From Anaerolineae bacterium (GTDB lineage: Bacteria > Chloroflexota > Anaerolineae > Anaerolineales > Anaerolineaceae), in assembly GCA_013314735.1 (NCBI GenBank), contig JABUFD010000008.1, forward strand, positions 1 to 64,000: a stretch of DNA of 64,000 nt, written 5' to 3'. Made by a program: the position numbers and the translations under genes. The notes under the pieces were generated by a model, which ran no database searches, had not been told where the DNA came from, and was given only the letters and a program-made list of their open reading frames with translations. This document shows, in pieces, positions 8,129 to 56,899 of the stretch. Position 1 is the stretch's first letter, and every line of letters begins with the position of its first letter.

Positions 8129-8147
8129 CCCACCCCGGCCCTCCTTC

Positions 8148-22011: not shown

Positions 22012-22026
22012 TAGACAAACAATCAT

Positions 22027-22062: not shown

Positions 22063-22185
22063 TTGCCCTATCACAAAACTACAATTTTTTTTGCATATAT
22101 ACACAAATGGCCACTCGCCATTGCGGGTTAAGGCGTTACCGAACCACCTGGTTCAAATTAACTATGATCGATCTTCATGTTTTCC

Positions 22186-26119: not shown

Positions 26120-26146
26120 AAAGGTATCCCGTTACCCCTCTTGTAT

Positions 26147-26269
26147 TGTCTATAAAAATGGCTACAATCATGGATAGTATTCTCTGCAGCCATCGGCGAT
26201 TGATCATGAATGTGATCAATTTTCCTGAACAGGCGGGGAATCATCGAAGAGGATCGAGGAGTGTACAGC
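26147..26269 (+). promoter_or_regulatory. promoter (TACAAT at 26163) plus ~100-nt leader, identical to the leader of the downstream paralog
   Basis: 26163-26272 is base-for-base identical to 29483-29592. Contains a uORF (MDSILCSHRRLIMNVINFPEQAGNHRRGS..) overlapping the kinase start out of frame. Confidence 0.5.
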
Positions 26270-29200: not shown

Positions 29201-29359
29201 ATTGGCAATATCGTGTTTTTGGACCTGACAACCAATATAATACTGGGTGTGTTGCGGCAACATTTCGCCTCGATCCGGTGGTTGACGTTCAGTGTTGATG
29301 ACCACGAGTTGATCTCATTCGGTGATGACGGCATAACCAACATTTGGGGAATCCAATAA
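26270..29359 (+). CDS. Ser/Thr protein kinase - Pro-rich linker - TM - C-terminal beta-propeller (WD40/PQQ-like repeats)
   Basis: GVGGMGAVYRGKD, VAIKRL, HRDVKPGNILF, DFGIVKL, GTPTYMAPE. Hydrophobic helix WVWVLGGLGVLLFLGVALVLLI. Repeated ~40-aa blocks with SPDG/APDGS..L..G..DG.. motifs. GAGGAG RBS 9 nt before ATG 26270. Confidence 0.85.
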   Translation: MPYMVDHRYLVGEQLGVGGMGAVYRGKDTRLQRDVAIKRLQIFGSQADVDQFMKRFEREAIAMAQLQHPNIVGVLDFGQDDQGIFLILQYMPGGSLKDRMTAPFNPQSAAALLAPIADALHYVHDQGMIHRDVKPGNILFDARGNPMLADFGIVKLVEDTPGATLTGTGTAIGTPTYMAPELIGGEFDHRVDQYALGIIFYEMVTGKAPFTGRTPMEAMVAHKYEPLPDPRLLCPGLPQDAWDLIVRVLAKDPEQRYEDSGQFSAALRRLGQPPTPTPQPQPKPGEEPTSLVEDELPFNLPAKTPQPPAPGMQAVSEEDETQGVITPGKGTPVPPPPFVGNETPGGAPLSAPSLVRDEALKPPAKKKRAWVWVLGGLGVLLFLGVALVLLITMLTKGIMEPAATQVAQTHLETKVPTITSRPQPTVTPTLPSQIDNNTASALQVKTRIGKGNANIALYSPDGSLLVIGNSSGFYLLGADTGKELSSVQDIYVTSLAIAPSGNALATLDQDGYLTLWDIQNKFAPAILQQYPAAAPGASLRAATFSPDGNSLAYADYDTIFFYSFESGTVTGQVEWTDSNISQLQFNPDGQSIYGAANQLGLIGLWDMNTLSLTTTFPVGFVFNFALAPDGSLLAVYDSNEGTLKFFKPANASQFMEPIQTNGYVSDLAFSADGASLYGAINGNTISRWILVDDRSQLTYPLNNDQAYLFDLAPDGSSLAWTGFGAVGVFDFDTEQAKFDTDQFDYTGVLVEGWVNGEVLYVNDDHNGSVILRNTSGIAKQHLDSTAITTWLDSVTVSSNGQYLAARSYVNGAIVLLVWDLNTKQLLKQVPLADWVGDFRFSDDSQFLTVVNGMTATVYRTDTWGIHYGYTVTDAALTIAKYYPEFDLLVLAGYGRPLLINPLSGYTVELPLNVPAEGVFDLELSRDGSLLFLVSGKSLLIWNIPDQTFVLEAYDLLPNNAVELALNTSETLLAIGDNIGNIVFLDLTTNIILGVLRQHFASIRWLTFSVDDHELISFGDDGITNIWGIQ

Positions 29360-29400: not shown

Positions 29401-29466
29401 ACTCAAATTACCTGGCAATCCGTTTTCCCATACGCCACATTCTTCGGTTGCTTTCCCCTCTTGCAT

Positions 29467-29589
29467 TGTCATCTGAAAGGGTTACAATCATGGATAGTAT
29501 TCTCTGCAGCCATCGGCGATTGATCATGAATGTGATCAATTTTCCTGAACAGGCGGGGAATCATCGAAGAGGATCGAGGAGTGTACAGC
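29467..29589 (+). promoter_or_regulatory. duplicate promoter/leader (identical to 26147-26269)
   Basis: Identical 110-bp stretch including TACAATCATGGATAG and the RBS. Confidence 0.5.
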
Positions 29590-32500
29590 ATGGCCTACAT
29601 GGTGGATAATCGTTATCTGGTCGGTGAACAACTCGGCGTTGGCGGCATGGGTGCGGTCTACCGCGGCAAAGACACCCGCCTGCAGCGCGATGTCGCCATC
29701 AAGCGCCTTAACATCCTGGGGGGAAAAGCCGAAGTCGATCAGTTCATGAAACGTTTCGAACGCGAAGCGATTGCCATGGCGCAGCTGCAGCACCCCAACA
29801 TCGTGCGCGTACTCGATTTTGGGCGGGATGATGAAGGCATCTTCCTCATCCTCGAATTCATGTCCGGCAGGTCGCTGAAAGAGCGCATGACAGCCCCCTT
29901 TGATCCGCGCGCGGCAGCAATCCTGCTGGCGCCGATCGCCGATGCGCTGCATTATGTGCACGAACGGGGCATGATCCACCGTGATGTGAAACCCGGCAAC
30001 ATCCTGTTTGACGCGCGCGGCAACCCCATGCTGGCGGATTTCGGCATTGTCAAGCTGGTGGAGGAATCCCCCGGTGCCACCCTGACGGCGACGGGCATGG
30101 CGGTGGGTACGCCCACTTACATGGCGCCGGAGTTGATCGGGGGTGAATTTGACCACCGCGCCGACCAGTACGCGCTGGGGATCATCTTTTATGAAATGGT
30201 GACCGGCAAACCGCCCTTTAAGGGCCGCACGCCGATGGAAGCGATGGTGGCACACAAGTATGAACCCCTGCCGGATCCGCGCCTTTTGTGCCCCGGCCTG
30301 CCGCAGGATGCCTGGGACCTGATCGTGCGCGTATTGGCGAAGGACCCTGAACAGCGTTACGAGGACAGCGGGCAATTTTCCGCCGCGCTGCGCCGGCTGG
30401 GACAGCCCCCCACCCCAACCCCGCAACCGCAGCCGAAACCCGGCGAAGAACCCACCAGCCTGGTGGAAGACGAACTGCCCTTCAACCTCCCCGCCAAAAC
30501 GCCGCAACCGCCTGCGCCGGGGATGCAGGCGGTATCAGAGGAGGATGAAACCCAGGGCGTCCGTACCCCCGCGCGGGGGCTGCCGCTGGCACAGCCGCAA
30601 TATCACTGGGAACCGCAGCCAGCCGCGTCGGTTCAACCTGCCCCGCCCACCCCTGCGGCGGTTGCGGCGAAGAAAACAATCCCTGCCTGGGCCTGGGTGC
30701 TGGGAGGGGTTGGCCTGTTCACGATGGCAACCCTGGTGGTGGTGGCGGTGCTCCTGATCCGCAACGGGCTGTTCTCACCGGCTGCCACAGAAGAACCCTA
30801 CGCGTTCGAAGCGGCCACCGAAGCGCCAATGGCCGCGGCGGAAGAAACCGCCACGCAAGGGCCAACCGAGGCCCCCACCGCAAGCATGGTGCTTTCCGGC
30901 GGGGTGATCACCGCCGCCAACGTTGACCAGCTGCAGCCTGCATCCATCTTCGGCAAAGGCGGCGACCATCTCCCGCTCTTCACCCCCGATGGACGTTTCC
31001 TCCTGCTGGGCAACACCGACGGGCTGTATGTGTTCGATGCCGTCAGCGGGGTGGAGATCAGCCACACGCCGGGCCGCTACATCACCGCCATGGCGCTTTC
31101 GCCGGACGGCAGCGCCCTGGCCACGTTGGATTACAGCGGTTACCTCAGCCTGTGGTCGATCGGCGACGGCAGCGCGCCTTACCTGTTCCAGGCCTACCAG
31201 TACCAAGGCGGCAACAACTGGGACCTGCGCGCGCTGGCCTGGTCGCCCGACGGCAGTGTGATCGCCTTCAGTGACGCCTACACGATCTACTATTATTCCG
31301 TTGAAAAAAATGATGTTTTCAACACGGCTTATTGGGAAAACAGCCTGATCCGCGACCTGGCGTTCAGCCCGGACGGCAACCTTGTGTATGCCGCCGCCAA
31401 CAACCTCGCCTTGGTGGGGGTGTGGATCGCTGAAACTTCCACCCTGTACACCACCATTCCGGTCAATTACCCCTACTATATCGACCTATCGCCGGATGGA
31501 ACGCGCCTGGCGGTGTTTGACGCCGAGGAATACAGCCTGAAGCTGTTCAGCCTCTCCTCCTACCTCCTGGAACGCGCCTACAGTGTTGACGGGTACATGA
31601 ATGAAATGCGCTTTTCCCCTGATGGCACCGCCCTGTATGCCGTCCTCAGCAACGGCCAGGTCAACCGCTGGGAGGTGGGCGGCAGTGACCAGCCCCTCAC
31701 GCGCCAGCTGCCGGAAGGCTATGGCACACGCTTCTCGCTGTCGCCCGGCGGCTGCCTGGCGGCCTGGAGCAACTGGCTCCGGGTTGGAACCTACGACCTG
31801 TGTCAGGGTACCCCGGGTTTCTCCCTGGATGCTTTCACCACCCGCGGTAACCCGGTGAGGGGCTGGGTGAACGATGAATTGCTGTTCTCCGATACAGAGA
31901 GCCAACCGGGGCGGGTGCTCATCCGCGATATCTTCGGCGATGTGCGCCATGGGCTGGACATCTCATCCTACAACACCTGGATGTACCCGGTCAGCATTTC
32001 CCCCGACGGCACCACCCTGGTTGGCGGGGTGTATTACCAGAACACCTACAATATCCTGCTGTTCGACCTGGCTTCGGAATCGCTGCTGGGGATGTTCGCG
32101 GTGGATGAATATCCAATCGACCTGCGCTTTGCGCCAGACAGCCAGTCTTTTGTCTACTGCGGCAGCAGCCTCACCCGCATTTACAATATTCACAACTGGT
32201 GGGAGGGACCGTTCTACAGCCTGGATGGGTTGGAATACATGCAGGTGGGCAAGTATTTCCCGGCCTATGACCTGCTTGTGCTGGGCCAGTTCGCGAAAGT
32301 GCAGCTGGTATCACCGGCCAGCGGGGAAAGGTTCGAGCTGCCTGTGCCGGGGGGATATGTGGAAGGGATCGCGCTTTCCGCTGACGGCAGCCGGGTATAC
32401 GTGGCCAGCGGCCGTTCCCTGTACGTGTACGACCGCCGGACGGGTGCCTTTGTGGCGCAAGCCCCGGACAGCCTCCCGACAGAAGGATATGCGCTTGCCC

Positions 32501-32697
32501 TGAATGGGTCGGAAACCCTGCTGGCAGTCGGCGATACGCAGGGCGCGATTCACCTGTTCGACGCGCAAAACCTGGGCTGGGTGCGCACCCTCTACCGCCA
32601 CACCTACGGCATGGCAGACCTGCAGTTTGCGCCCGATGACCGGGCATTAACCTCCACCGGTTGGGATGCCCTGAGCGTGGTGTGGGCCGTGCCGTAA
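29590..32697 (+). CDS. Ser/Thr protein kinase - linker - TM - beta-propeller, paralog of 26270-29359
   Basis: Kinase domain ~90% identical at protein level to the upstream paralog; the identical PTPTPQPQPKPGEEPTSLVEDELPFNLPAKTPQPPAPGMQAVSEEDETQGV linker is retained. The C-terminal repeat domain has diverged. Confidence 0.85.
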   Translation: MAYMVDNRYLVGEQLGVGGMGAVYRGKDTRLQRDVAIKRLNILGGKAEVDQFMKRFEREAIAMAQLQHPNIVRVLDFGRDDEGIFLILEFMSGRSLKERMTAPFDPRAAAILLAPIADALHYVHERGMIHRDVKPGNILFDARGNPMLADFGIVKLVEESPGATLTATGMAVGTPTYMAPELIGGEFDHRADQYALGIIFYEMVTGKPPFKGRTPMEAMVAHKYEPLPDPRLLCPGLPQDAWDLIVRVLAKDPEQRYEDSGQFSAALRRLGQPPTPTPQPQPKPGEEPTSLVEDELPFNLPAKTPQPPAPGMQAVSEEDETQGVRTPARGLPLAQPQYHWEPQPAASVQPAPPTPAAVAAKKTIPAWAWVLGGVGLFTMATLVVVAVLLIRNGLFSPAATEEPYAFEAATEAPMAAAEETATQGPTEAPTASMVLSGGVITAANVDQLQPASIFGKGGDHLPLFTPDGRFLLLGNTDGLYVFDAVSGVEISHTPGRYITAMALSPDGSALATLDYSGYLSLWSIGDGSAPYLFQAYQYQGGNNWDLRALAWSPDGSVIAFSDAYTIYYYSVEKNDVFNTAYWENSLIRDLAFSPDGNLVYAAANNLALVGVWIAETSTLYTTIPVNYPYYIDLSPDGTRLAVFDAEEYSLKLFSLSSYLLERAYSVDGYMNEMRFSPDGTALYAVLSNGQVNRWEVGGSDQPLTRQLPEGYGTRFSLSPGGCLAAWSNWLRVGTYDLCQGTPGFSLDAFTTRGNPVRGWVNDELLFSDTESQPGRVLIRDIFGDVRHGLDISSYNTWMYPVSISPDGTTLVGGVYYQNTYNILLFDLASESLLGMFAVDEYPIDLRFAPDSQSFVYCGSSLTRIYNIHNWWEGPFYSLDGLEYMQVGKYFPAYDLLVLGQFAKVQLVSPASGERFELPVPGGYVEGIALSADGSRVYVASGRSLYVYDRRTGAFVAQAPDSLPTEGYALALNGSETLLAVGDTQGAIHLFDAQNLGWVRTLYRHTYGMADLQFAPDDRALTSTGWDALSVVWAVP

Positions 32698-32829: not shown

Positions 32830-34623
32830 TTATTTGCCCAGCCGCGCCAGTTCCGCCGCCACGATGCTTTCATCGAGCTTGACGAACAGCGGTTCGGGTT
32901 TATTAAAGGCGCGCCCGGCCTGCAATGCACTCGGCTGCCACTGCCCGGCGGCAGCAGCGGGGTCGTAGCGCAGCACGCTGTGGCTGCCGAGGGTGTCGGC
33001 GGCCTCCTGCGTGAAACCGCTGCCGAACAGGGGTTGTTCGTAATGGAGGAAGCCGTGCAGTTTTTCACTGCTGAAGGGCAGGAACGGTGCGAACAGCACC
33101 TTGAGCGAGTCGATCGCGCGCATGGCGGTGAAAATCGCCCGCGCCGCGGCGGTCTCATCGGTTTTGACCACCTTCCACGGCTCGGTCACATCGAGGTACT
33201 TGTTGACCTCACTCGCCAGGCGGATGCATTCTGCCAGCGCCGCGCGCAGCTTCACGCCTTCGATCAACTCGCCGACCGTGCCAAACCCGGCCTCGATCGC
33301 CGCCAGCAGTTCGCTATCGAGCGCAGTCAGCTCGCCCGGTTCGGGGATCACGCCGTTCCAGCGCTTGTGGGCAAAGCCCAGCACGCGGTTGGCCAGGTTG
33401 CCCCAGGTGGCAATCAGTTCGCCGTTGTTGCGGTTGTAAAAGTCCTCCCACGCCCAATCGGTGTCCTTGGTTTCGGGCATGGTCATCGTCAGGTAATAGC
33501 GCAGGGGGTCGGGGTCGTAGCGCTCGAGGTAATCGAGCACCCACACGCCCCAGTTGCGGCTGCCGGAAATTTTCTGCCCCTCCATGTTCATAAACTCATT
33601 GGCGGGTACATCATAAGGCAGCACCAGCGGCTGCGGGTCGGCGGCGCCCATCAGGGCGTCAAAATCGGTGCCGGCGCCCAGCAGTTCCGCCGGCCAGATG
33701 ATGGCATGGAAGGGGATGTTGTCCTTGCCGATGAAGTAATAGGTTTTGGAAGCGGGGTTGGTCCACCATTCGCGCCATGCGTCGGGCTGGCCGGTGAGTT
33801 TGGCGTACTCCACCGCCGCCGAAAGGTAGCCGATCACGGCCTCGAACCACACGTACAGGCGCTTGCCGTCCCAGCCTTCCAGCGGCACGGGGATGCCCCA
33901 CTCCAGGTCGCGCGTGATGGCGCGCCCGCGCAGGGGGTTGTTCTCGATCTGCCCCAGCGATTGGCGGATCACATTCGGGCGCCAATAGCTTTCGCGCTGG
34001 CGCAGGAAATCAGCCACCTCGCCTTCCAGCGCGCCCAGGTCGAGGAAGAAATGCTCGGTATCGCGCAACTCGGGGGTGGAGCCGTCCACCTTGGAGCGCG
34101 GGTCGATCAGTTTGTCGGCTTCCAGCAGGCTGCCGCACTTGTCGCACTGGTCGGAACGGGCGTTGTCGTAGCCGCAGATGTAGCAGGTGCCTTCCACGTA
34201 GCGGTCGGGCAGGAATTTGCCCTGGGCGGGCGAATACCACTGCTTCTGGGTATCGGTATAGAGGTAGCCGTTTTCCTTCAGGACTGTGAACAGCTTTTGC
34301 GCCACATCGAAATGGTTTTCGGTGTGGGTGCTGGTAAAGAGGTCATAGGTGATGCCGGTTTTCTGGAACAGGTCGAGAAAACGGTGGTGGAAGCGCTGGT
34401 AGATGTCCAGCGGGGTGGCGTTCTCGGCATCGGCGCGCACGGTGATGGGTGTGCCGTGGGCGTCGGTGCCGGACACCATCAGCACCTGGCGGCCGCGCAT
34501 GCGGTGGTAGCGCGCGACAATATCCGCCGGCAAATGCGAGCCGGTCATATTTCCCACATGAATATCGGCGTTGCCGTACGGCCACGCCACGCACACCAAT
34601 ACAGGTTCAGCCATAGCGATCAT
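32830..34623 (-). CDS. metG: methionine--tRNA ligase
   Basis: Class I aaRS with HVGN (HIGH-type) motif, zinc knuckle CYICGYD..CDKCG, and GQKISGSRNWGV (KMSKS-type) motif. 597 aa. Confidence 0.85.
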   Translation of the reverse strand: MIAMAEPVLVCVAWPYGNADIHVGNMTGSHLPADIVARYHRMRGRQVLMVSGTDAHGTPITVRADAENATPLDIYQRFHHRFLDLFQKTGITYDLFTSTHTENHFDVAQKLFTVLKENGYLYTDTQKQWYSPAQGKFLPDRYVEGTCYICGYDNARSDQCDKCGSLLEADKLIDPRSKVDGSTPELRDTEHFFLDLGALEGEVADFLRQRESYWRPNVIRQSLGQIENNPLRGRAITRDLEWGIPVPLEGWDGKRLYVWFEAVIGYLSAAVEYAKLTGQPDAWREWWTNPASKTYYFIGKDNIPFHAIIWPAELLGAGTDFDALMGAADPQPLVLPYDVPANEFMNMEGQKISGSRNWGVWVLDYLERYDPDPLRYYLTMTMPETKDTDWAWEDFYNRNNGELIATWGNLANRVLGFAHKRWNGVIPEPGELTALDSELLAAIEAGFGTVGELIEGVKLRAALAECIRLASEVNKYLDVTEPWKVVKTDETAAARAIFTAMRAIDSLKVLFAPFLPFSSEKLHGFLHYEQPLFGSGFTQEAADTLGSHSVLRYDPAAAAGQWQPSALQAGRAFNKPEPLFVKLDESIVAAELARLGK

Positions 34624-34714
34624 CCTCCAAATGGAACAATTTGTAGCGAAATTGTATCATGAAGGGCAATGCGCGGGGAAGTTAAGATCACCCTTCGACA
34701 GCACTTCGGCAGCA

Positions 34715-35075
34715 CTTCGGCAGGCTCAGTGTGAAGCTCAGTGCAGGAGCTCAGGGAGCGTATTATTTCAACGGTCGCCGAGCGGGTTCCTGAGCCTGTC
34801 GAAGGATCGAGGCGACATTCTGCGGGTAACTTACGTTCTCCCCTCGACACACTTCGACAGGCTCAGTGCAGGAGCTCGGGGAGCGTGTTAATGGGGTGCG
34901 TGTTAACGCAACGGTCGCCGAGCGGGTTCCTGAGCCTGTCGAAGGATCGAAGCGACATCCTCCGTCCAAGGCGACATTCTGCGGGTAACTTACGTTCTCC
35001 CCTCGACACACTTCGACAGGCTCAGTGCAGGAGCTCGGGGAGCGTTTTTAAAGGGTGCGTGTTAATGGGCCGGGT
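34715..35075. repeat. left flanking copy (2+ tandem units) of a hairpin repeat (T family: cctgagcctgtcgaagg ... cttcgacaggctcag)
   Basis: Units at 34771-34918 and 34911-35075 share acggtcgccgagcgggttcctgagcctgtcgaagg..gcgacattctgcgggtaacttacgttctcccctcgacacacttcgacaggctcagtgcaggagctcggggagcgtgttaatgg. Same family and orientation at 44170-44400. Confidence 0.75.
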
Positions 35076-35210
35076 ATTAACGGGGAGCGTGTTGTTTCCC
35101 CCCGCAAAAACTGCTTGCGCCCGGTTGCGCAGGGGCGGTTTTTGGCGTATCATTAATATTCGGGCATCAAGCCCGCCGCCAAGTCTATCCACGGGGAGGG
35201 TACCCAACCA

Positions 35211-37259
35211 ATGCACGCCGCCGATTTCACCGAGATTTCCAATTTCATCTGGAATACCGCCGACCTGATCCGCAATTACTTCAAGCGTGGGCAGTACCAG
35301 TCCGTCATCCTGCCCTTCACGGTCCTGCGCCGCATTGACAGTGTGCTGGTGCCCACCAAGCAGGCTGTCCTGGCAGAATACCACAAACGCAAAGGGGAGA
35401 TCGATGACCTTTACCCACGGCTCACCCGCGTTTCGGGCTATGCTTTCTACAACACCTCGCCCTACACCTTCGAGAGCCTGCTGGATGACGCCCCCAACCT
35501 GGCCGCCAACCTGATGGCCTACATCAACGCCTTTTCCCCCAACATGGTCGAGGTGCTGGAGAAGTTCAAGTTCCCCACCATCGTCAAAGAACTGGACGAT
35601 GCCAACCTGCTCTTCCTGGTGATGCAGCATTTTAAGAACATCGACCTGCACCCGGGGCATGTGCCCAACCTGGCGATGGGCTACATCTTCGAAGACCTGA
35701 TCCGCCGCTTCAACGAAGCCCTCAACGAGAACCCCGGCGAGCACTACACCCCGCGCGAGGTCATCCGCCTGATGGTGAACCTGCTCCTGACCGATCCCGA
35801 CCCCGCCTGGCTGCTGCCCAATATCGTCCACAAGGTGTATGACCCGTGCTGCGGCACTGGCGGCATGCTCACCATTGCCCGTGACCGCATCCTGGAACTC
35901 AACCCGCAGGCCGATGTGCGCCTGTTCGGGCAGGAGCTCAACCCCGAAACCTGGGCGGTGTGCAAGTCGGATATGTTCCTCAAAAGCGCTGACGGCCGCG
36001 ACGCCGACAACATCCGCAGTGAATCGTCGCTCTCCAAAGACAAGTTCAAAGAGGAAACCTTCAATCTGCTCCTCACCAATCCCCCGTATGGCATGGATTG
36101 GAAATCGGAAAAGGAATTCATCGACAAGGAAGCCGCCCTGGGTTCGCGTGGGCGCTTCAGTGCCGGTACACCGCGAGTTTCCGATGGCCAACTGCTGTTC
36201 CTGCAGCACCTGATCAGCAAGATGGCTGCCCCGGTGGAAGGTTCCGGCGGGGCGCGCATCGCGATCGTCCTCAACGGTTCGCCGCTCTTCACCGGCGACG
36301 CCGGCTCGGGTGAATCCGAGATTCGCCGCTGGATCCTGGAGCATGACTGGCTCGAAGCGATCATCGCCCTGCCGGAGCAGCTCTTTTACAACACCGGCAT
36401 TGCCACCTATATCTGGCTCCTCACCAACCACAAGCCCGCCGCGCGCCGCGGCAAGGTGCAATTGATCGACGCCACCGGTATGTGGACCCCGATGCGCAAA
36501 TCGCTGGGCGACAAGCGCCGTGAAATTGGCGAGGCGCAGATCACCGAGATCACCCGCATCTTCCACGCCTTCGCGGAAAGCGAGCGCTCGAAAATCTTCG
36601 ACACCACCGCCTTCGGCTTCCGCAAGATCACAGTCGAACGCCCGTTGCGCCTCAACTTCCAGGCCAGTGCGGAGCGCATCGCGCGCCTGCATGAGGAAAC
36701 CGCCTTCAAGAACCTGGCCGCCAGCAAGAAGAAGAACCCCGCCGACCGCCGGGAGGAAGAAGCCGCCGGGCGCGCCCTGCAGCAGGACCTGCTCACTACC
36801 CTGAACACCCTGCCCGGCGAGGTATTCACCGACCGCGCCCGCTTTGAGAAAGCCCTCGACAAAGCCCTGCGCCAGGCCGGGCTGAAGCCCCCCGCCGCGC
36901 TGCGCAAGGCCATCCTCAACGCGCTTTCCGAACGCGACGAAAACGCTGCCCCCTGCCGCGACAGCAAGGGCAATCCCGAACCCGACCCCGACCTGCGCGA
37001 CACGGAGAACGTCCCGCTGGGCGAGGCCATCGAAGACTACTTTGCGCGCGAGGTGCTGCCCTACGTGCCCGATGCCTGGATTGCGCCCGACAAGACCGAT
37101 GCCCTCGACGGCCGGGTGGGCGTGGTGGGTTACGAGATCAACTTCAACCGCTACTTTTACCAATACCAGCCCCCGCGCCCGTTGGCGGAGATCGAAGCCG
37201 AGATCAAGGCGCTGGAGCGGGAGATCATGAGTTTGTTAGGAGAGATGACAGATGAATGA
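35211..37259 (+). CDS. hsdM: type I restriction-modification system, N6-adenine methyltransferase subunit
   Basis: N-terminal HsdM-N block (FIWNTADLIRNYFKRGQY..VILPFTVLRR), SAM motif DPCCGTGGML, catalytic LLTNPPYG. Confidence 0.9.
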   Translation: MHAADFTEISNFIWNTADLIRNYFKRGQYQSVILPFTVLRRIDSVLVPTKQAVLAEYHKRKGEIDDLYPRLTRVSGYAFYNTSPYTFESLLDDAPNLAANLMAYINAFSPNMVEVLEKFKFPTIVKELDDANLLFLVMQHFKNIDLHPGHVPNLAMGYIFEDLIRRFNEALNENPGEHYTPREVIRLMVNLLLTDPDPAWLLPNIVHKVYDPCCGTGGMLTIARDRILELNPQADVRLFGQELNPETWAVCKSDMFLKSADGRDADNIRSESSLSKDKFKEETFNLLLTNPPYGMDWKSEKEFIDKEAALGSRGRFSAGTPRVSDGQLLFLQHLISKMAAPVEGSGGARIAIVLNGSPLFTGDAGSGESEIRRWILEHDWLEAIIALPEQLFYNTGIATYIWLLTNHKPAARRGKVQLIDATGMWTPMRKSLGDKRREIGEAQITEITRIFHAFAESERSKIFDTTAFGFRKITVERPLRLNFQASAERIARLHEETAFKNLAASKKKNPADRREEEAAGRALQQDLLTTLNTLPGEVFTDRARFEKALDKALRQAGLKPPAALRKAILNALSERDENAAPCRDSKGNPEPDPDLRDTENVPLGEAIEDYFAREVLPYVPDAWIAPDKTDALDGRVGVVGYEINFNRYFYQYQPPRPLAEIEAEIKALEREIMSLLGEMTDE

Positions 37260-39150
37260 AAATGAAGGGGTGATTACTCGCATTGATGCAAATGCAAAAA
37301 ATGTCAGCGAATTATTGAAAGATAAAAATTACGAAATTGACTTTTATCAACGAGAATATCGATGGGAAACCCGCCACATCGAAGAATTAATCACTGATCT
37401 TACGGATAGATTTTTTGAAAGTTATCAAGAAACCCACACGAGAAAGGACGATGGGCCTAAATATGTCCACTATTTTTTAGGGCCGATCATTCTCAGCAAG
37501 CGCAACGGCAAAACATTTATCGTAGATGGACAGCAACGGCTGACATCACTCACCCTGTTATTGATCTATTTGAAACACCTTCAAAAAGAACTAAAAATTC
37601 AAAATCCAGTCAAGCTTGACGATCATATATGTTCTGAGGTTAGAGGCACTTATTCCTTCAACCTTTATGTTGAAGATCGGCAGGATGCGATTGCAGCCTT
37701 GTATAATGATGGCACTTACGAACCCACCAATGGTGATGAGTCAACCAGGAATATTGTCAATCGGTACAGTGAGATTGATACCATCATGCCACCGGACATC
37801 AAACATGAGCATGCCATTTTATTATTCACCGATTGGCTGCTTCTGAACGTTGACCTGATTGAAATTGTAGCCTTCTCAGACGAAGAGGCTTACACTATTT
37901 TTGAAACAATGAATGATCGCGGATTGAATCTTACACAAACCGAGATGCTAAAAGGATACCTGATTGCCAATTTGGGGCAGGAGGTCAATAAAAATAAGGC
38001 CAATGACCTTTGGAAGAAACAACTCGCCAGGTTGGTGAAAATCCACAGAAATGAAGAAGGTGACTTCTTCAAACATTGGCTGCGTGCAAAATATGCACTG
38101 ACTGTCCGTTCAGGCGGTCGAGGAGAAACCAACCAGGATTTTGAGAAAATCGGAACGGAGTTCCACAAGTGGGTGAGAGATAAAAAGGATTTAATCGGGT
38201 TGATTACACCCTACGATTACGAGGTTTTTATCAACGAGAAATTCCAAAAGTTTTCCACCCTCTACCAACTGATTCGCAAATATAGCTTTGAATACACACC
38301 CGGTTTTGAAGCCATTTATTACAACGCGTACAACAACTTTACCTGGCAATACCCGATGCTTTTGTCACCCGTTCGCGACAACGATACAAAGGAAGCAGCA
38401 GAACAGAAAATCATGCTGGTTGCCCGGTATATTGACTATTACATCGCCCACCGGGCGGTGAATTATCTGACGTTGAGTTATGCCTCGCAGCGTACCGCTG
38501 TTGCCAACTTCATTTTCGAGGTCAGAGATTTATCCTATGATGATCTGAAGCAGCAAATCAAAGTGAAAGCAAAGGAGATCGAGCATTACTTCGATGGGGC
38601 TGATGAAAAAAATCGCCAGGGTGTGTTGCAATTTGGCCTGAACCAATGGAGCAAGCGATACATCCGCTATATCCTGGCAAGGCTGACAAGCTTTGTGGAA
38701 ACGCAGAGCAACCAATCAGATAAATTCGTTGAATATACATCCACCAAAATCAAACGTCCTTACGAAATTGAGCACATCTGGGCGGCCAAGTTTGACCGGC
38801 ACAAAGATGAATTTTCAAGTGAGTATGCGTTTTTTGAGAAACGGAACCAGATCGGGGGATTGATCCTGGTGCCCAGAGGCTTCAACCAGTCCTACAATGA
38901 CCTGCCATATGAAGAGAAGCTGCCCTTATACCTACAACAGAATCTCCTGGCACAATCACTCAATCAACAGGCCTATCACAACAATCCTGATTTTAAAGCC
39001 TTCCTGCGCAAAAGCGGCCTGCCTTTTCAACCCCATCGGCAATTCCGTAAAGAAGATATCGACAAACGGAACCTGTTATACAAACAATTGTGTGAACAGG
39101 TCTGGAGTTTGAAATCACTGCTGCAGGATGAAGATGATACCAATGCCTGA
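37252..39150 (+). CDS. DUF262 (ParB-like nuclease fold) + DUF1524 (HNH-like) protein, GmrSD-family type IV restriction enzyme-like, embedded in the type I R-M operon
   Basis: N-terminal ..EIDFYQREYRWE..FLGPIIL..DGQQRLTSL (DUF262). C-terminal ..YEIEHIWA..F..N.IGGL.L.PRGFNQS (DUF1524/HNH). Start overlaps the hsdM stop by 8 nt. Confidence 0.75.
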   Translation: MNENEGVITRIDANAKNVSELLKDKNYEIDFYQREYRWETRHIEELITDLTDRFFESYQETHTRKDDGPKYVHYFLGPIILSKRNGKTFIVDGQQRLTSLTLLLIYLKHLQKELKIQNPVKLDDHICSEVRGTYSFNLYVEDRQDAIAALYNDGTYEPTNGDESTRNIVNRYSEIDTIMPPDIKHEHAILLFTDWLLLNVDLIEIVAFSDEEAYTIFETMNDRGLNLTQTEMLKGYLIANLGQEVNKNKANDLWKKQLARLVKIHRNEEGDFFKHWLRAKYALTVRSGGRGETNQDFEKIGTEFHKWVRDKKDLIGLITPYDYEVFINEKFQKFSTLYQLIRKYSFEYTPGFEAIYYNAYNNFTWQYPMLLSPVRDNDTKEAAEQKIMLVARYIDYYIAHRAVNYLTLSYASQRTAVANFIFEVRDLSYDDLKQQIKVKAKEIEHYFDGADEKNRQGVLQFGLNQWSKRYIRYILARLTSFVETQSNQSDKFVEYTSTKIKRPYEIEHIWAAKFDRHKDEFSSEYAFFEKRNQIGGLILVPRGFNQSYNDLPYEEKLPLYLQQNLLAQSLNQQAYHNNPDFKAFLRKSGLPFQPHRQFRKEDIDKRNLLYKQLCEQVWSLKSLLQDEDDTNA

Positions 39151-39300
39151 GCCAATGGCCATGCGCACAACCAGCAACGCTCCTGCCAATTGCTTGCACG
39201 CGGCTGTGCTTTGCGCTATACTATTCACCAGTAAACCCGCCAAGCCTCTGCCCCATTGGGGCATGCGCCACTGTGGTGGGTGTTTCTTTTTGGGGGCAGC

Positions 39301-40629
39301 ATGAATTCCGTCCTCTCCGGCCAATACACCCCCTACCCCGCCTACCAACCCTCCGGCATCGAGTGGCAGGGGGAGATTCCTACGCATTGGGATGTGGTTA
39401 ACTTAAAACATTTGACCGAATGTTTAGATTCAAAACGAATTCCTCTAAATGCAGATCAACGAGGACAAATGCAAGGAGACTATCCTTACTGGGGTGCAAA
39501 TGGAATTGTTGATTTTGTTGGTGACTGGTTATTTGATGAAGAACTTGTGCTGTTAGGTGAAGATGGAGCACCTTTTTTTGATTCCTACAAAGATGTGGCT
39601 TTCTTAGTAAATGGACGAATTTGGGTCAATAATCACATACATATCTTACGGGCAAAAAAAGTGGTTTCAAACTTTCTAGTCTATGTTCTTAACATTGTTG
39701 ATTATAAAAATTTTATCGATGGGAGTACAAGAGATAAACTCACGCAAGGATTAATGGGAATGATACCCATCCCCCTCCCCCCCCTGCCCGAACAACAGAC
39801 CATCGCGGCATTCCTTGACCACCACACGGCGCGGATTGATGCGCTGATCGCGAAGCAGCAGCGCCTGATCGACCTGCTGCACGAGAAGCGCACCGCCCTC
39901 ATCTCGCACGCCGTCACCCAGGGCCTCGACCCCGCCGCCCCCATGCGGGATTCCGGCGTGGCCTGGCTCGGTGAGATTCCGAGTCATTGGGAGGTGCGGA
40001 AAATAAAATTTATCTTGCGGAATAAAAAGAATGCAATAAAGACAGGACCTTTTGGTAGTCAACTAAAAAATTCAGATATGGCATCAGATGAGGTGAAAGT
40101 ATATAACCAAAGGAATGTGATTGATAGTGACTTTTCTACGGGGGATTACTACATTTCGTCCGAAAAATTTTTAGAATTGAGAGAATTTGAAATTTTCCCT
40201 GATGATATTCTGATTACGACAAGAGGTACTATTGGTAGATGTGCAATATTCCCAGAAAACAGAGATAGAGGAATTTTACATCCATGTTTAATAAGGCTTG
40301 AGTTAGATCAGAACAAAGTTTTGAATCAATTTCTTATTTGGTATATTCAAGATGCCAATCAATTTAAAAGCAACATTTTTTTCGAAAGTAATGCAACAAC
40401 CATTGAAGTTATTTATAGCGGGACTCTAAAACAAGTTTCGGTTGCTGTTCCTCCCATTTCGGAGCAATTAGCCATTATGGATTACCTTGACCGCGAAACC
40501 ACGAAGATTGATACCCTGGTGGAGAAGCAACACCAGGTGATTGAAAGATTGCAGGAATACCGCACGGCGCTGATCAGTGCCGCCGTCACCGGCAAGATCG
40601 ATGTGAGGAGGTGGCAGGATGGATTATAA
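39301..40629 (+). CDS. hsdS: type I R-M specificity subunit (two target-recognition domains)
   Basis: Two AT-rich variable TRDs, each followed by a conserved LPPLPEQQTIAAFLD..ID.LI.KQ / VPPISEQLAIMDYLD..IDTLVEKQ coiled-coil spacer. Confidence 0.85.
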   Translation: MNSVLSGQYTPYPAYQPSGIEWQGEIPTHWDVVNLKHLTECLDSKRIPLNADQRGQMQGDYPYWGANGIVDFVGDWLFDEELVLLGEDGAPFFDSYKDVAFLVNGRIWVNNHIHILRAKKVVSNFLVYVLNIVDYKNFIDGSTRDKLTQGLMGMIPIPLPPLPEQQTIAAFLDHHTARIDALIAKQQRLIDLLHEKRTALISHAVTQGLDPAAPMRDSGVAWLGEIPSHWEVRKIKFILRNKKNAIKTGPFGSQLKNSDMASDEVKVYNQRNVIDSDFSTGDYYISSEKFLELREFEIFPDDILITTRGTIGRCAIFPENRDRGILHPCLIRLELDQNKVLNQFLIWYIQDANQFKSNIFFESNATTIEVIYSGTLKQVSVAVPPISEQLAIMDYLDRETTKIDTLVEKQHQVIERLQEYRTALISAAVTGKIDVRRWQDGL

Positions 40630-41128
40630 CAACCTGGTCAAAGACTTTGCCCAACGCACGCGCGAGAACCTGGCCTACATTGACGCCGCCCATGCCCGCG
40701 GCGAAAACGTGTACGAGGTCACCCAGCTGGTCAATTCCTTGCTGGGGCTGTTGATCTTCCCCCAGCAGCGCTGGGTTAACCGTGTTCCGCGCATCGGTCT
40801 CGAAGAACTGGTGCGGCGCGGCTGGCCGGAAATCCATCCCACCCCACGCATCCAGGCAGATGCACACTTTCAACAGGCCGATAACCTGCATGACCTGGTG
40901 CGCGTTCTGCGCAATTCCATTGCCCACTGCAATATCGAAATTTCGGATGTGGATGCCAACAACGAGATATGCGGCCTGCGCATCTGGAACATCAACCGTC
41001 AGGGAGATAAAACCTGGGAGGCGGAGCTATCCATCGCCGACCTGCGCGCATTGGCAGAAAATTTTGCTGTGCTAATGACGCAGGACCCGCGCAATTGGGG
41101 ATCAGCCGCAGGAGGGGAACACCCATGA
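40619..41128 (+). CDS. small HEPN-like protein (R-x4-H motif LRNSIAH) translationally coupled between hsdS and hsdR
   Basis: 169 aa. RBS GAGGAGG before ATG 40619, which overlaps the hsdS stop; its stop overlaps the hsdR ATG (ATGA). RNSIAHCN fits the HEPN R-x4-6-H motif; the family assignment is tentative. Confidence 0.5.
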   Translation: MDYNNLVKDFAQRTRENLAYIDAAHARGENVYEVTQLVNSLLGLLIFPQQRWVNRVPRIGLEELVRRGWPEIHPTPRIQADAHFQQADNLHDLVRVLRNSIAHCNIEISDVDANNEICGLRIWNINRQGDKTWEAELSIADLRALAENFAVLMTQDPRNWGSAAGGEHP

Positions 41129-44100
41129 GCATCTCGGAAAAATCCTTTGAAGAAACCATCGAAGCCGCGCTGTGCGCCGGTGCCCCCGGCCAGCCGCGCA
41201 GCGTGCGCGAAGCCCCGGCCGGGCTGTTTGAACCCGGCGGCTACCGCCAGCGCCCCCCCGCCGACTACGACCCCGCCCTGTGTCTCATCCCCGAGGACGT
41301 GATCGCCTTCCTCCAGGCCACCCAGCCCGAAGAATGGGCCAAACTCAAGCGCCTCAAACGCGAAGGCGCCCGTGACAGCCTGCTGCGCCGCCTCTCGGAG
41401 GAGATCGGCCGGCGCGGCGTGGTCGATGTCCTGCGCAAGGGCATCAAGGATTCCGGCGCGCGCTTCCAGCTCTATTACCACAAGCCCGCCAGCACCCTCA
41501 ACCCCGAAATCCAGCAGCATTACCGCGCCAACGGGTTCACGGTCATGCGCCAGGTGCATTATGCCACCCGCAGCGGTGATGCCGGCAAATCGCTCGATCT
41601 CGTCCTGTTCCTCAACGGCATCCCCCTCTTCACCGCCGAACTCAAGAACGAGCTCACCGGCCAGAACGTGACCCACGCCATCCGCCAGTACCAGCGCGAC
41701 CGCGACCCGCGCGAGCCGCTGTTTGCCGCCGGGCGCTGCCTGGCGCATTTCGCCGTCGACACCCACCTGGTGTATTTCACCACCCACCTGCGCGGGGAGA
41801 AAACCGCCTTTCTGCCCTTCAACCAGGGCTTCGAGCGCGGCGCCGGCAACCCGCCCTCCTTCTTCGGCTACGATACCGCCTACCTGTGGGAACAGGTCTG
41901 GGCGCGCGATTCCGTCCTCAACCTGGTGCAGAACTTCGTCTACCGCCTGGAAAGCGCCGGCAAGGAGCATACCGTCATCTTCCCGCGCTACCACCAGCTG
42001 GATGCCGTGCGGCGCCTGCTGGCAGATGCCCTGGCACACGGCGCCGGGCAGCGCTACCTGATCCAGCACAGCGCTGGCAGCGGTAAGAGCTACTCCATCG
42101 CCTGGCTGGCGCACCAGTTATCCACCCTGCACGATGCCGAAAATAAGCGCGTGTTTGATTCGATCATCGTCGTCACCGACCGGCGCGTACTCGACCAGGC
42201 CCTGCAGCGCCACGTGGAAAACTTTGAGCAAACCCGCGGGCTGGTGGCCAACATCGGCGAGAACCAGCATTCCGCCGATCTTCGTAAAGCACTGGAGGAA
42301 GGCAAGGACATCATCGTCACCACCATCCAGAAATTCCCCTACATCGTTGACACCATCGGCGCCATGAGCCAGGCGCGCTTTGCCGTCATCATCGACGAAG
42401 CGCATTCCTCGCAGGGCGGCGAAACCGCCCACAAAATGCAGCAGGTGCTCAACGTCAGCACCCTGGAAGAAGCCGAAGCGATCGACGCTGACAGCGGCGA
42501 GGACTGGGAAGACCAGGTGGTGGAAGCGGCGCGCTCGCGCGGCATGCTGCCCAACGTGAGCTACTTCGCCTTCACCGCCACCCCCAAAGCCAAAACCCTC
42601 GAACTCTTTGGCACGCGCCGCCCCGATGGGCAGTACGAAGCCTTCAGCCTGTACGCGATGAAACAGGCCATCGATGAAGGCTTCATCCTCGATGTGCTCC
42701 AGAACTACATCACCTACCAGACCTACTGGAACCTGCTCAAGAAGATCGAGGACGACCCGACCTATGACAAAAAGAAAGCCACCTACCTGCTGAAACACTT
42801 TGTCGACCTGCACCACATCACCATCGAGCGCAAGGCCGAGATCATGCTGGCGCATTTTGATGGCCAGGCGCGCCACCAGGTCAACGGCCAGGCCAAAGCC
42901 ATGATCGTCACCCGTTCGCGCCTGCATGCCGTGCGCTATAAACTGATTATCGACCGCCTGATCCGTGAACACGGCTACCCGTTCGAAGCGCTGGTGGCGT
43001 TTTCCGGCAAGGTGGACGACGGCGGCAAAAGTTACACCGAAAGCGGGATGAACAGCGAAAGCAGCGGTGAGCGCATCCCCGAAAGCGGTACCGCCGATGC
43101 CTTCAAAGGCGAGCGCTTCCGCATCATGATCGTGGCGGAGAAATTCCAGACCGGCTTCGATGAACCGCGCCTGCATACCATGTATGTGGACAAGCGCCTG
43201 CAGGGCCTGCACGCCGTGCAAACCCTCTCGCGCCTCAACCGCATCTACCCGCCCCACAAAAAAGAAGTGGTGGTGATCGACTTCGTCAACGAGGTGGAAG
43301 ACATCGAAGCCGCCTTCCTGCCGTATTATGACCGCACCCTGCTCTCACACGAAACCGACCCCAACCTGCTGTATGATTACGAAGGTGAGATTCGCGGCTA
43401 CAACCTGTTCACCGATGATGACCTGAATGCCTTCGCGCGGGAATACTTCAGCCCCAACCCCAACCAGGCGAAACTATACCGCATCTTCAGCCCGGCCCTG
43501 GCGCATTTTGAGCAGTTGGAGAACGCCGACAAAAAAGCCTGCAAGCAATTTTTGAAAAAATACGTGCGCCTGTATGCCTTCCTGGGGCAGGTGGCGCGCT
43601 TCCAGGACCCTGAACTGGAGAAACTGTACTACTACGCCTACTACCTCGACCGCCTGGCAAAGCTGGAAGCCGAAGAACTGCCGCTGGAGATCATCGACGC
43701 CATCGACCTGGAGTCCCTGCGCGTGCAGCACACCGGCACAAGCCGGATCGACCTGAAACAAACCGGCGCCACGCTGGAACCGGAAAGCGGCCTGCCGCAG
43801 GGGATGGAAGATGCGGAGAAGGAAGCCCTATCACGTATCATCGCGGAACTCAACCAGCGCTTCGGCACCGAATGGACCGAGGAAGACCAGCTGCGCGTGA
43901 TCGAGGAAATCGAGCGCGGGTTGGATACCTCACTCGCCCTGCGCAACAGCGTGGCGGTCAACACCCCGGAAAACGCCAAACTGACCTTTGATGACATCCT
44001 CGATGACCTCCTGCAGGAGATGATCGACACCCATTTTAAGTTCTACAAGCAGATCAACGGCAACCCCGACCTCGGCCAGCGCTTCCGCGAGATCATGTAC

Positions 44101-44139
44101 ACCCGCTACCGCGAACGCGTGGCGCCACCAGGCGCATGA
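41125..44139 (+). CDS. hsdR: type I restriction enzyme R subunit (helicase/nuclease)
   Basis: Walker A HSAGSGKS, DEAH box VIIDEAHSS, helicase motif VI QTLSRLNR. Length 1004 aa. Confidence 0.9.
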   Translation: MSISEKSFEETIEAALCAGAPGQPRSVREAPAGLFEPGGYRQRPPADYDPALCLIPEDVIAFLQATQPEEWAKLKRLKREGARDSLLRRLSEEIGRRGVVDVLRKGIKDSGARFQLYYHKPASTLNPEIQQHYRANGFTVMRQVHYATRSGDAGKSLDLVLFLNGIPLFTAELKNELTGQNVTHAIRQYQRDRDPREPLFAAGRCLAHFAVDTHLVYFTTHLRGEKTAFLPFNQGFERGAGNPPSFFGYDTAYLWEQVWARDSVLNLVQNFVYRLESAGKEHTVIFPRYHQLDAVRRLLADALAHGAGQRYLIQHSAGSGKSYSIAWLAHQLSTLHDAENKRVFDSIIVVTDRRVLDQALQRHVENFEQTRGLVANIGENQHSADLRKALEEGKDIIVTTIQKFPYIVDTIGAMSQARFAVIIDEAHSSQGGETAHKMQQVLNVSTLEEAEAIDADSGEDWEDQVVEAARSRGMLPNVSYFAFTATPKAKTLELFGTRRPDGQYEAFSLYAMKQAIDEGFILDVLQNYITYQTYWNLLKKIEDDPTYDKKKATYLLKHFVDLHHITIERKAEIMLAHFDGQARHQVNGQAKAMIVTRSRLHAVRYKLIIDRLIREHGYPFEALVAFSGKVDDGGKSYTESGMNSESSGERIPESGTADAFKGERFRIMIVAEKFQTGFDEPRLHTMYVDKRLQGLHAVQTLSRLNRIYPPHKKEVVVIDFVNEVEDIEAAFLPYYDRTLLSHETDPNLLYDYEGEIRGYNLFTDDDLNAFAREYFSPNPNQAKLYRIFSPALAHFEQLENADKKACKQFLKKYVRLYAFLGQVARFQDPELEKLYYYAYYLDRLAKLEAEELPLEIIDAIDLESLRVQHTGTSRIDLKQTGATLEPESGLPQGMEDAEKEALSRIIAELNQRFGTEWTEEDQLRVIEEIERGLDTSLALRNSVAVNTPENAKLTFDDILDDLLQEMIDTHFKFYKQINGNPDLGQRFREIMYTRYRERVAPPGA

Positions 44140-44169
44140 TCACGGTTGGTGAGCTTGTGGTTCAACGGG

Positions 44170-44400
44170 CTCACCAACCATCGAAGGGACATTCTGCGGG
44201 TAACTTGCGTTCTCCCCTCGACAGGCTCGGGGAGCGTATTATTTCAACGGTCGCCGAGCCTGTCGAGGCGACATCCTCCGTCCGAGGCGACATCTTAGTC
44301 CGAAGCGACGTCCCCCACCCGAAGCGACAATGTGCGGGTAACTTGCGTTCTCCCCTCGACAGGCTCGGGGAGCGTGTTAATGGGGTGCGTTAATCAGCCT
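44170..44400. repeat. right flanking copy of the T-family hairpin repeat (direct orientation relative to 34715-35075)
   Basis: gacattctgcgggtaacttgcgttctcccctcgacaggctcggggagcgt[a/g]tta repeated twice; contains internal 13-nt tandem cgaggcgacatc-like repeats. Confidence 0.75.
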
Positions 44401-44893
44401 CAAACCCATCCAGCAGGCGCAGGTGGTAGGAACGCAGGGTGCGGTTGTCGGGGTGGTAGAGGAATTCGGCGCGGAAGGGCTGGCCGCGCAGCGCCAGCGG
44501 CAGCCAGTAGGGGTTGTCGGCCCACATCTCCGCCAGCGGCAGGGCCTCCGGCCGGCACCAGTGCGGGGTCATCTCGTCGGTTTCCCGCGGTTCGCCCGGC
44601 AGGGGCACGGCGGCCAGGAACACGTGGCAGAAAAAGGTCTCCTCGCCGTTGTAGTCGATGGTGAAGGTGATCTCCCCCACCTTGCGGAAGGCTTCCGGCG
44701 GGAGCAGCAGCCCGGATTCCTCGGCGAACTCGCGCCGCACGCAGGCGGCGGCATCCTCGCCGGGGTCCACCTTGCCGCCGTAGCTGGTGATCCTGCCGGC
44801 GCCGAAGCCTTTGCGCTTGCGCCCCAGTAACACGCGTCCATCGGCGGGGTCGAGCACAACAACGAGCGTGGTTTGCAGCAGGTCGCTATCCAT
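44390..44893 (-). CDS. NUDIX hydrolase
   Basis: Nudix box GKVDPGEDAAACVRREFAEESGL (G-x5-E-x7-REUxEExGU). Confidence 0.8.
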   Translation of the reverse strand: MDSDLLQTTLVVVLDPADGRVLLGRKRKGFGAGRITSYGGKVDPGEDAAACVRREFAEESGLLLPPEAFRKVGEITFTIDYNGEETFFCHVFLAAVPLPGEPRETDEMTPHWCRPEALPLAEMWADNPYWLPLALRGQPFRAEFLYHPDNRTLRSYHLRLLDGFEAD

Positions 44894-52880: not shown

Positions 52881-52968
52881 ATGTGTGATGTGGCATCAAA
52901 AATTGGCTATAATGGTAACAGGACGCAGCTTCCACACCCGTTCCAACATTCACAGGCAAGAGGGTTTT

Positions 52969-56880: not shown

Positions 56881-56899
56881 AAAGGCGGCGGAACCGTCC

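Follow-up and report, generated by a model that had tools for sequence, protein, structure and literature searches.

Two arrays of one hairpin-forming repeat family, called T here, flank a five-gene type I restriction-modification (R-M) operon in the genome of an uncultured member of the Chloroflexota (Anaerolineae bacterium, assembly GCA_013314735.1, contig JABUFD010000008.1). The analysis covers positions 1 to 64,000 of the forward strand of this contig, a 64-kb stretch referred to below as the window. The operon consists of hsdM, a GmrSD-family gene, hsdS, a HEPN gene and hsdR. It is the only thing that the two arrays enclose, and it sits between metG and a NUDIX gene, just as an earlier note on this DNA had described. 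From left to right the locus reads as follows, with G+C content (GC) and G+C content at third codon positions (GC3).

32830-34623, minus strand: metG, left neighbour of the bracketed segment (GC3 0.825)
34689-35095, plus strand: left T array, made of units L0, L1 and L2 and a tail
35104-35145, both strands: G+C-rich hairpin that resembles a terminator in both directions, each strand having its T run and its own terminator-like site; it separates the left T array from the start of hsdM
35211-37259, plus strand: hsdM, type I methyltransferase (GC 0.615, GC3 0.829)
37252-39150, plus strand: GmrSD-family (DUF262/DUF1524) nuclease gene inside the operon; GC drops sharply at its start (GC 0.428, GC3 0.494)
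39256-40629, plus strand: hsdS (GC3 0.456)
40619-41128, plus strand: HEPN gene of the pEK499_p136 family
41095-44139, plus strand: hsdR, type I restriction subunit (GC 0.613, GC3 0.818)
44144-44392, plus strand: right T array, whole block
44390-44893, minus strand: NUDIX gene, right neighbour, convergent with hsdR (GC3 0.875)

About 66 nt of upstream sequence separate the metG start codon from the left array, which is placed between the metG promoter region and the terminator-like hairpin upstream of hsdM. The right array fills the hsdR-NUDIX spacer of about 250 nt, beginning 5 nt past the hsdR stop and reaching the NUDIX stop codon. The database copy of hsdR has its start 10 codons downstream (1004 aa). 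A candidate promoter, TTGCGC-17-TATCAT, which was picked out by eye and lies under the scan threshold, overlaps the hairpin at 35104-35145.

What defines the T repeat? A 28-nt core, TGCGGGTAACTTRCGTTCTCCCCTCGAC, has exactly four copies in the 64 kb, all on the plus strand: those at 34821 and 34980 precede hsdM, and those at 44195 and 44333 follow hsdR. It was not matched once in 100 dinucleotide-preserving shuffles of the window. Repeat finding independently recovered the four core copies together with both left units, which are 96% identical over 97 nt at a period of 159 nt. The core and the units built around it are distributed over the two arrays as follows.

34814-34849, 34973-35008, 44188-44223 and 44326-44361, plus strand: extended T core GACATTCTGCGGGTAACTTACGTTCTCCCCTCGACA, about 36 nt, the private part of the unit
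34689-34761, plus strand: degenerate unit L0, with 3' arm remnants only, in 11-12-nt tandem copies
about 34754-34886, plus strand: full unit L1
about 34877-35045, plus strand: full unit L2, a tandem copy of L1 with a period of 159 nt
35037-35095, plus strand: left tail of GGGNNGCGTGTTAA 15-mers
44144-44179: perfect 11-bp palindrome GGTTGGTGAGC...GCTCACCAACC, which replaces the 5' arm of R1
44180-44237, plus strand: unit R1, with core and 3' arm
44229-44375, plus strand: unit R2, with three additional 19-nt CGARGCGACATCNNNNGTC sub-repeats at 44264-44338

The right tail, GGGGAGCGTGTTAATGGGGTGCGTTAA, ends in a TAA that is the NUDIX stop codon when read on the minus strand. Thus the claim of the earlier note that T copies of the same orientation stand on both sides of the operon holds, and so does its claim of inverted arms. 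The arrays lie where it had placed them; they are larger than its 34715-35075 and 44170-44400 imply.

Each complete T unit, 115-137 nt long, combines two small hairpins as an inverted doublet around the private core of about 36 nt, together with the 15-nt and 19-nt sub-repeats. It holds one small hairpin on the plus strand and one on the minus strand, 62-100 nt apart. DNA folding predicts that the complete units form long hairpins, with stems of 15-16 bp contributed by the inverted arms (z scores of -5.0 for L1, -4.2 for L2 and -2.8 for R2), and such hairpins are predicted for either strand. R1 alone, in which the canonical 5' arm is missing, shows no such fold (z = +0.6).

The left and right arrays are paralogous. 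An alignment of 34745-34905 with 44222-44392 gives 127 matches and 7 mismatches, or 94.8% over 134 aligned positions, with 64 gap columns. The two are colinear including the linkers, for both run as unit, GTATTATTTCAACGG linker, unit and GTTAATGGGGTGCGT tail. They differ by two nested hairpin insertions common to L1 and L2, by the three extra 19-nt sub-repeats on the right and by a local tandem duplication. Because of these differences the left/right duplication is taken not to be recent, and the blocks to have evolved separately for some time. Since the two hairpin-in-loop insertions are found in the left units only, small hairpins were gained or lost in one array after the arrays had separated. 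L2 is a later tandem copy of L1. The longest exact tracts between left and right are 30 and 28 nt, while within the arrays they reach 77 and 43 nt. For RecA-dependent recombination in E. coli, tracts of 30 and 28 nt only just exceed the minimal efficient processing segment, so excision between the blocks would be rare.

The small hairpins in the arms deserve a description of their own. The T arms contain the 11-mer GAGCCTGTCGA or its complement. In the window, all eight exact copies of this 11-mer, and one further copy with a single mismatch, are flanked by perfect complementary stems of 4-6 bp, and the stems have five different sequences (CCCT, TCCT, GTCGCC, CTCCCC and CACT). The elementary module is thus a mini-hairpin of 22-25 nt with the constant loop GAGCCTGTCGA and a variable stem. 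Its extended consensus is cGGT-NNN-TGAGCCTGTCGAA-N'N'N'-(CCG), and its 25-nt consensus is cGGTCCCTGAGCCTGTCGAAGGGCCG. The copies in the window, and the nested structures in which some of them lie, are these.

761-781, 34785-34806, 34850-34868, 34925-34946, 35009-35027, 44212-44234, 44250-44272 and 44350-44372: mini-hairpin copies of the window
761-781, plus strand: the solitary copy GGTCCCTGAGCCTGTCGAAGG (GGTCCCT-GAGCCTGTCGA-AGG), 21 nt, which has nothing beyond these 21 nt in common with the T arrays
34774-34816, plus strand: nested mini-hairpin in L1, with outer stem GTCGCC/GGCGAC, loop split as GAGC...TCGA and inner GGTTCCT-GAGCCTGTCGA-AGGA; L2 counterpart at 34914-34956
34844-34882, minus strand: second nested mini-hairpin in L1, with outer stem CTCCCC/GGGGAG and inner CACT-GAGCCTGTCGA-AGTG; L2 counterpart at 35003-35041

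The homologues of these nested structures in the right array are simple: 44250-44272 corresponds to the first and is un-nested, and 44212-44234 and 44350-44372 correspond to the second. The arms of the palindrome at 44144-44179 open like a mini-hairpin (GGT-NNN-TGAGC), and the palindrome matches a metagenome locus (L086) at 92% over 38 nt.

How widely is the mini-hairpin distributed? An exact scan for GGTYCCTGAGCCTGTCGAAGG matched at least 120 metagenome contigs, against an estimated handful by chance, and the loci fetched range from 33 to 73% GC. The pattern has 14 matches in IMG/VR viral contigs. By BLAST it is also present in finished plasmids and chromids, among them those of Sphingobium, Sphingomonas, Variovorax and Microbacterium. 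By group, it occurs in Chloroflexota (the window), Alpha- and Betaproteobacteria, Actinomycetota, Bacteroidota-like contigs and phage contigs. When the whole arrays were compared by BLAST with these loci, the similarity was limited to the hairpin of about 22 nt, and so T is best described as a private scaffold that bears cosmopolitan hairpins. This also settles the fragment at 750-795, which had been taken for a further piece of T: only the 21 nt at 761-781 are common, they are an independent copy of the mini-hairpin with its at least 120 exact metagenome matches, and the window has no third T site.

The stem of the mini-hairpin varies under the constraint of pairing. To avoid ascertainment bias, covariation was measured on 46 copies outside the selection made by the search pattern, that is, on bystanders in the fetched loci and the other copies of the window. 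The four stem pairs adjacent to the loop covary with a score of 0.509. Shuffles gave 0.193 ± 0.022, none of 500 reaching the observed score, and a control with slid partners gave no more than 0.214. At one stem pair, for example, GC was counted 21 times, CG 12, AU 3, GU 3 and UA once.

Among the metagenome matches listed, 46 of the 176 mini-hairpin copies have a partner on the opposite strand within 150 nt. On four unrelated contigs (L023:341, L037:658, L088:10371 and L127:988) one copy is nested inside the loop of another near GAGCCTG|TCGA, and nesting of the same type is seen three times in the left T array. The copy of L127, when inspected by eye, seems to be nested three deep. Such nesting suggests self-targeted insertion. 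In contigs below 50% GC, 37 of the 81 copies among the matches listed lie deep within stop-free stretches of at least 120 codons. Several of these appear to be in-frame inserts of 7-10 residues (VPEPVEG, GPSTGSGT, ALRQAQG) in apparent housekeeping proteins (loci L054, L058, L121, L064, L033, L055 and L091), which, from reading the translations by eye, we take to be AroC, AroA, TilS, a PurL-like protein, Dus, an ABC-F ATPase and a RluA-like protein. In two tilS orthologues (L058 and L121) an identical 25-mer stands at the same site in opposite orientations, with flanks about 77% identical. No clean pair of presence and absence was found among the homologous metagenome loci compared, and no description of the mini-hairpin was found in the searchable literature by its DNA string or its translated peptides (VPEPVEG, LSLSKG, FDRLRDR and others). 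Tentatively, then, the T arms may be copies of an undescribed, cosmopolitan and ultra-small mobile hairpin of 22-25 nt with a constant TGAGCCTGTCGAA loop region and at least three freely covarying pairs. Such an element would target itself, enter housekeeping genes in frame and be invertible at an orthologous site, and T-type repeats would be lineage-specific scaffolds that it built or remodelled.

Is the operon itself a mobile cassette? By GC3, hsdM and hsdR are like their neighbours metG and the NUDIX gene, and the low values belong to the GmrSD gene and hsdS. In hsdS, two recognition-domain blocks of low GC (30-38%), at about 39400-39700 and about 40000-40400, lie between conserved regions of high GC. 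Thus hsdM and hsdR are compositionally native, and the foreign-looking DNA is internal to the operon and is not bounded by the T blocks. As an observation aside, the stretch 37200-40500 is a compositional mosaic that resembles allelic replacement of HsdS specificity domains together with an embedded type IV nuclease, GmrSD. The open reading frames (ORFs) of the 64-kb window include no integrase, no transposase and no RAYT gene (a Y1 transposase associated with repetitive extragenic palindromic elements, REPs). An integrase-mediated island was considered and rejected: no tyrosine or serine recombinase lies in the segment or its neighbours, and the repeats are 95% identical with many indels rather than near-perfect attachment (att) sites.

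What a mobilised version of the system looks like is shown by another locus. The closest HsdR homologue (64% identical; GCA_015657915.1, NPIE01000611.1) has likewise the gene order hsdM-GmrSD-hsdS-hsdR, and it sits in a 19.4-kb island that carries a tyrosine integrase, an HTH_17 gene and an ArdC-like gene between perfect 25-nt direct att copies (locus L131, 3612-3636 and 23007-23031). This island is quite unlike the present locus. The nearest HsdR homologues are 60-64% identical, against 79-83% for the relatives of MetG. This divergence, together with the island cargo, indicates that the R-M type travels horizontally. The loci of the closest MetG relatives (79-83%; P0003, P0006 and P0007) show no synteny on either side of metG and no NUDIX gene, and BLAST of the arrays against them gave no match to T sequence. 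The only independent assembly of the same sample is Logan SRR6186653. Its contigs that carry the identical NUDIX and HsdR agree with the window at 100% and stop within the arrays; they record no alternative junction, and since they break there they are uninformative on junctions.

Beyond the window no further T sequence was found in the collections searched. Exact scans with the T core (GCGGGTAACTTRCGTTCTCCCC) found no match in collections of genome, metagenome or viral contigs, and the 23-mer of the T tail had no exact match in viral contigs. In the genome contigs, a control 23-mer from the P family of repeats described below, with 10 exact copies in the window, was also unmatched, so the zero T matches there say nothing about copy number in the source genome. 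Six-frame translations of both arrays had no hit at E <= 1 in a database of 5.8 billion proteins, a search that is insensitive because it did not return the arrays themselves. When the window was searched with Rfam 15, tRNA-Phe was the one family above its gathering threshold, and the best permissive scores in the arrays are at most 17 bits against thresholds of 50-137. Two candidate identities were set aside at this point. A tRNA-like element was rejected since ARAGORN finds tRNA-Phe only, and an integron attC site since the window has no recombinase; attC-type R and L boxes were not looked for.

Note that T is not the only repeat family of the window that brackets genes. A second family of hairpins, P (CCATCCCGRAGG / CCTCCCTCCGGGATGG), unrelated to T, occurs in five spacers and twice forms pairs of the same orientation.

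8147-8315 and 11460-11628, same orientation: P-related repeat pair, 96% identical over 169 nt
10630-10710: P-related partial copy, between modules
13271-13327: P-related partial copy, beside tRNA-Phe (13398-13470)
15783-16028: P site upstream of a beta-lactamase-family gene
51966-52930 and 56138-56935: P tandem arrays, 5-6 units of 159 or 178 nt that differ by a 19-nt sub-repeat, enclosing a chloramphenicol-phosphotransferase-like gene and GNAT acetyltransferase genes

The first pair encloses a fusion gene of an N6_N4 methylase and Mrr and, by our own reading of the sequence, what we take to be a helix-turn-helix (HTH) gene and a YefM/YoeB-like pair. Since P brackets genes other than R-M genes in the same manner, any special link of T to the R-M operon is removed; bracketing by members of one family is a general habit of repeats here. 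By our estimate from the ORF map, two T sites would fall no more than five genes apart among some 45 spacers with a chance of about 1 in 5. Two side observations belong to the P region. The four P-related copies there, as we read the sequence, separate successive accessory modules (methylase-Mrr with the HTH gene, the YefM/YoeB-like pair and an AraC regulator), a cassette-like layout in which no recombinase is seen. The methylase-Mrr gene (8414-10072) has an in-frame TAG at 8567-8569, 51 codons after the ATG at 8414 (...SAA*LTAFEDTWHW), and it is probably inactivated by a CAG-to-TAG nonsense mutation at the site of an expected conserved glutamine.

How, then, did the same block come to stand on both sides of the operon? 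From the anatomy, paralogy and predicted fold of the blocks, the native composition of hsdM and hsdR and the lack of mobility genes in the window, we read the T blocks as paralogous copies of a lineage-private, mosaic intergenic repeat beside a long-resident native operon, their two-sided presence being due to local spread or duplication. The repeat would be of the kind of the bacterial interspersed mosaic elements (BIMEs), the Neisseria intergenic mosaic elements (NIMEs) and the REP doublets that form hairpins (REPINs). We hold this reading with about even confidence. The blocks would most likely be passive, structure-forming spacer DNA, and by analogy with REPs and BIMEs they could serve as 3'-end hairpins for convergent transcripts. 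The arrays probably grew by insertion of mini-hairpins into hairpin loops, by slippage of sub-repeats and by local or segmental duplication. The same block would be found on both sides because repeat families spread locally in the genome, and not because the blocks are a device dedicated to excision. The operon might be deleted or amplified if the blocks recombined by homology, and this should be rare.

Several points weigh against this reading. It assumes a dispersed multi-copy family, and the T core was seen in the window solely at the two flanks of the R-M operon and nowhere else in the collections scanned. The blocks are colinear over about 160 nt including the linkers, as a single duplication tied to the insertion of the operon would leave them. 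All three bracketed segments, one between T and two between P repeats, hold accessory or defence-type genes, and hairpin arrays could thus be cassette junctions. Finally, a function of the arrays as RNA 3' ends or structural elements is putative and drawn from analogy.

The main alternative is that the blocks are the footprint of an insertion. Direct repeats are commoner around R-M systems than around other genes, and Furuta, Abe & Kobayashi (2010, NAR 38:2428; PMC2853133) distinguished three classes, namely site-specific recombination, long target duplication and chance insertion between repeats. In this scenario the operon or its ancestor entered a pre-existing T block in the NUDIX-metG spacer, either by long target duplication or by a single crossover whose partner was a T block carried by a circular donor molecule of a related strain; both routes would leave one block on each side. 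Its best support is that the blocks are direct, colinear and paralogous, 94.8% identical with the linkers included. The T core is confined to these two sites in 64 kb, and no mobility gene is near, as in the class of long target duplications, whose repeats often span the start or stop of a neighbour (PMC2853133); here it is the NUDIX stop codon that the right block reaches. The lower identity of the HsdR relatives compared with those of MetG, and the occurrence of the best HsdR homologue as cargo of an integrative island, point the same way. On the other hand, the native composition of hsdM and hsdR needs a donor of the same GC or an old event, and the arrays have since diverged by several indels. 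At the inner right junction the T sequence is R1, which has no good counterpart in L0, and a clean duplication would not leave such boundaries. No empty site was found among the closest MetG relatives, which are 79-83% identical and lack synteny, and the P family brackets other genes alike. We regard an insertion footprint as possible, with clearly less confidence than local spread or duplication of a resident repeat.

Could the arrays instead be a dedicated cis-regulatory or RNA element of the operon, such as a promoter or operator array, a terminator array or a structured noncoding RNA? The strong predicted structure would suit such a role, the 15-nt and 19-nt direct sub-repeats are candidate protein-binding sites, and the terminator-like hairpin just past the left array would fit a short plus-strand transcript that ends there. 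A promoter array was rejected, however, since the scan of the left spacer turned up no sigma-70-like promoter, and the terminator-like hairpin stands between the array and hsdM. The right array yielded no canonical terminator and neither array an Rfam match, and the conserved modules are generic hairpins that occur in unrelated contexts, including the inside of genes. A dedicated element is therefore unlikely.

The least probable explanation is an active switch, in which RecA acts on the blocks recurrently, so that the defence cassette is excised, lost, amplified or exchanged in the population: the direct-repeat geometry is suitable, but perfect identity does not exceed 30 nt and is broken by indels, the blocks have diverged as would not be expected if exchange or gene conversion between them were frequent, and the SRR6186653 contigs match the occupied arrangement at 100%, break inside the arrays and put no alternative junction on record. 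The recombination reading of the earlier note, in which the repeats allow the cassette to be excised or exchanged or mark its site of insertion, is thus partly supported. The geometry would permit deletion, amplification or Campbell-type integration, but the short exact identity, the diverged arrays, the native hsdM and hsdR, the lack of mobility genes and the bracketing by P all count against it, and mobilisation of the operon by the repeats is unproven in mechanism and weaker than that note implied.

The preferred reading, that of a resident mosaic repeat, places T beside several known systems. Like T, the BIMEs found in E. coli and the NIMEs found in Neisseria are intergenic tandem mosaics in which palindromic units alternate with other short motifs and the composition varies between copies, and they too lie between convergent genes and next to accessory genes (this comparison draws on general knowledge and on PMC2884548 and PMC3733652). 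By its make-up, an intergenic array mixing alternating palindromic units and short motifs, T falls within the description of these elements. The sequences are unrelated, however, and the palindromic unit of T has a conserved loop and a variable stem instead of a conserved stem. REPs and REPINs share with T a palindromic unit of about 22-25 nt and the arrangement as inverted doublets with a spacer, which is found in each complete T unit; REPs also have occasional intragenic copies (PMC3733652), as has the mini-hairpin. They differ in that the loop is invariant and the stem covaries here, the reverse of REPs, and in that cGGTCCCTGAGCCTGTCGAAGGGCCG has no GTAG/CGTC tag. REPINs are reported to be lineage-specific and vertically inherited, whereas the identical mini-hairpin occurs across phyla. 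The R-M systems of the Furuta classes resemble the present locus in that it has a type I unit, no adjacent mobility gene and direct repeats longer than 150 nt, one of which reaches the stop codon of a neighbour. Their cases of long target duplication were proven by an empty site in a related genome, with high-copy repeats excluded (PMC2853133). Those repeats are clean duplications of ordinary sequence, while the T repeats are hairpin-rich mosaics diverged by indels. With regard to copy number T is divided: the arms are a high-copy cosmopolitan hairpin and the core is seen only here.

For the mini-hairpin itself, the nearest parallels are other small repeats. The small dispersed repeats (SDRs) of the Nostocaceae, reportedly the subject of a study by Elhai et al. 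in 2008 (Genome Res 18:1484), and the Rickettsia palindromic elements (RPEs) resemble it by description, with about 21-27 nt, a hairpin, nesting and in-frame intragenic copies. SDRs are reported to be confined to the Nostocaceae (PMC5861425), while the mini-hairpin spans several phyla and phages. RPEs, at 100-150 nt, are longer.

Three further features of the window were recorded. Two tandem paralogous genes for Ser/Thr-kinase-WD40 proteins lie at 26261-29359 and 29581-32697; their upstream and N-terminal segments (26132-26431 and 29452-29751) are 87% identical, and the 3' end of the first falls to about 46% GC. A 1-kb block of 37.5% GC at 22001-23000 has an ORF without Pfam match at 22186-22893 on the minus strand. 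About six copies of a 23-nt tandem repeat, GTAATCGAAATTRCRGCYAGTCY, occupy 57901-58038.

What do these findings mean? For R-M systems the stakes are modest, as the locus adds an example from an uncultured member of the Chloroflexota to the systems that lie between direct repeats. If an empty site were found, the hairpin arrays could be landing pads or recombination joints for defence genes. The by-product of the analysis may matter more than the finding on the flanks of the operon. A mini-hairpin that is common at the DNA level to distant bacteria and phages, is nested in itself and apparently stands in frame in essential genes would require some means of being copied, and we know of none that fits it.

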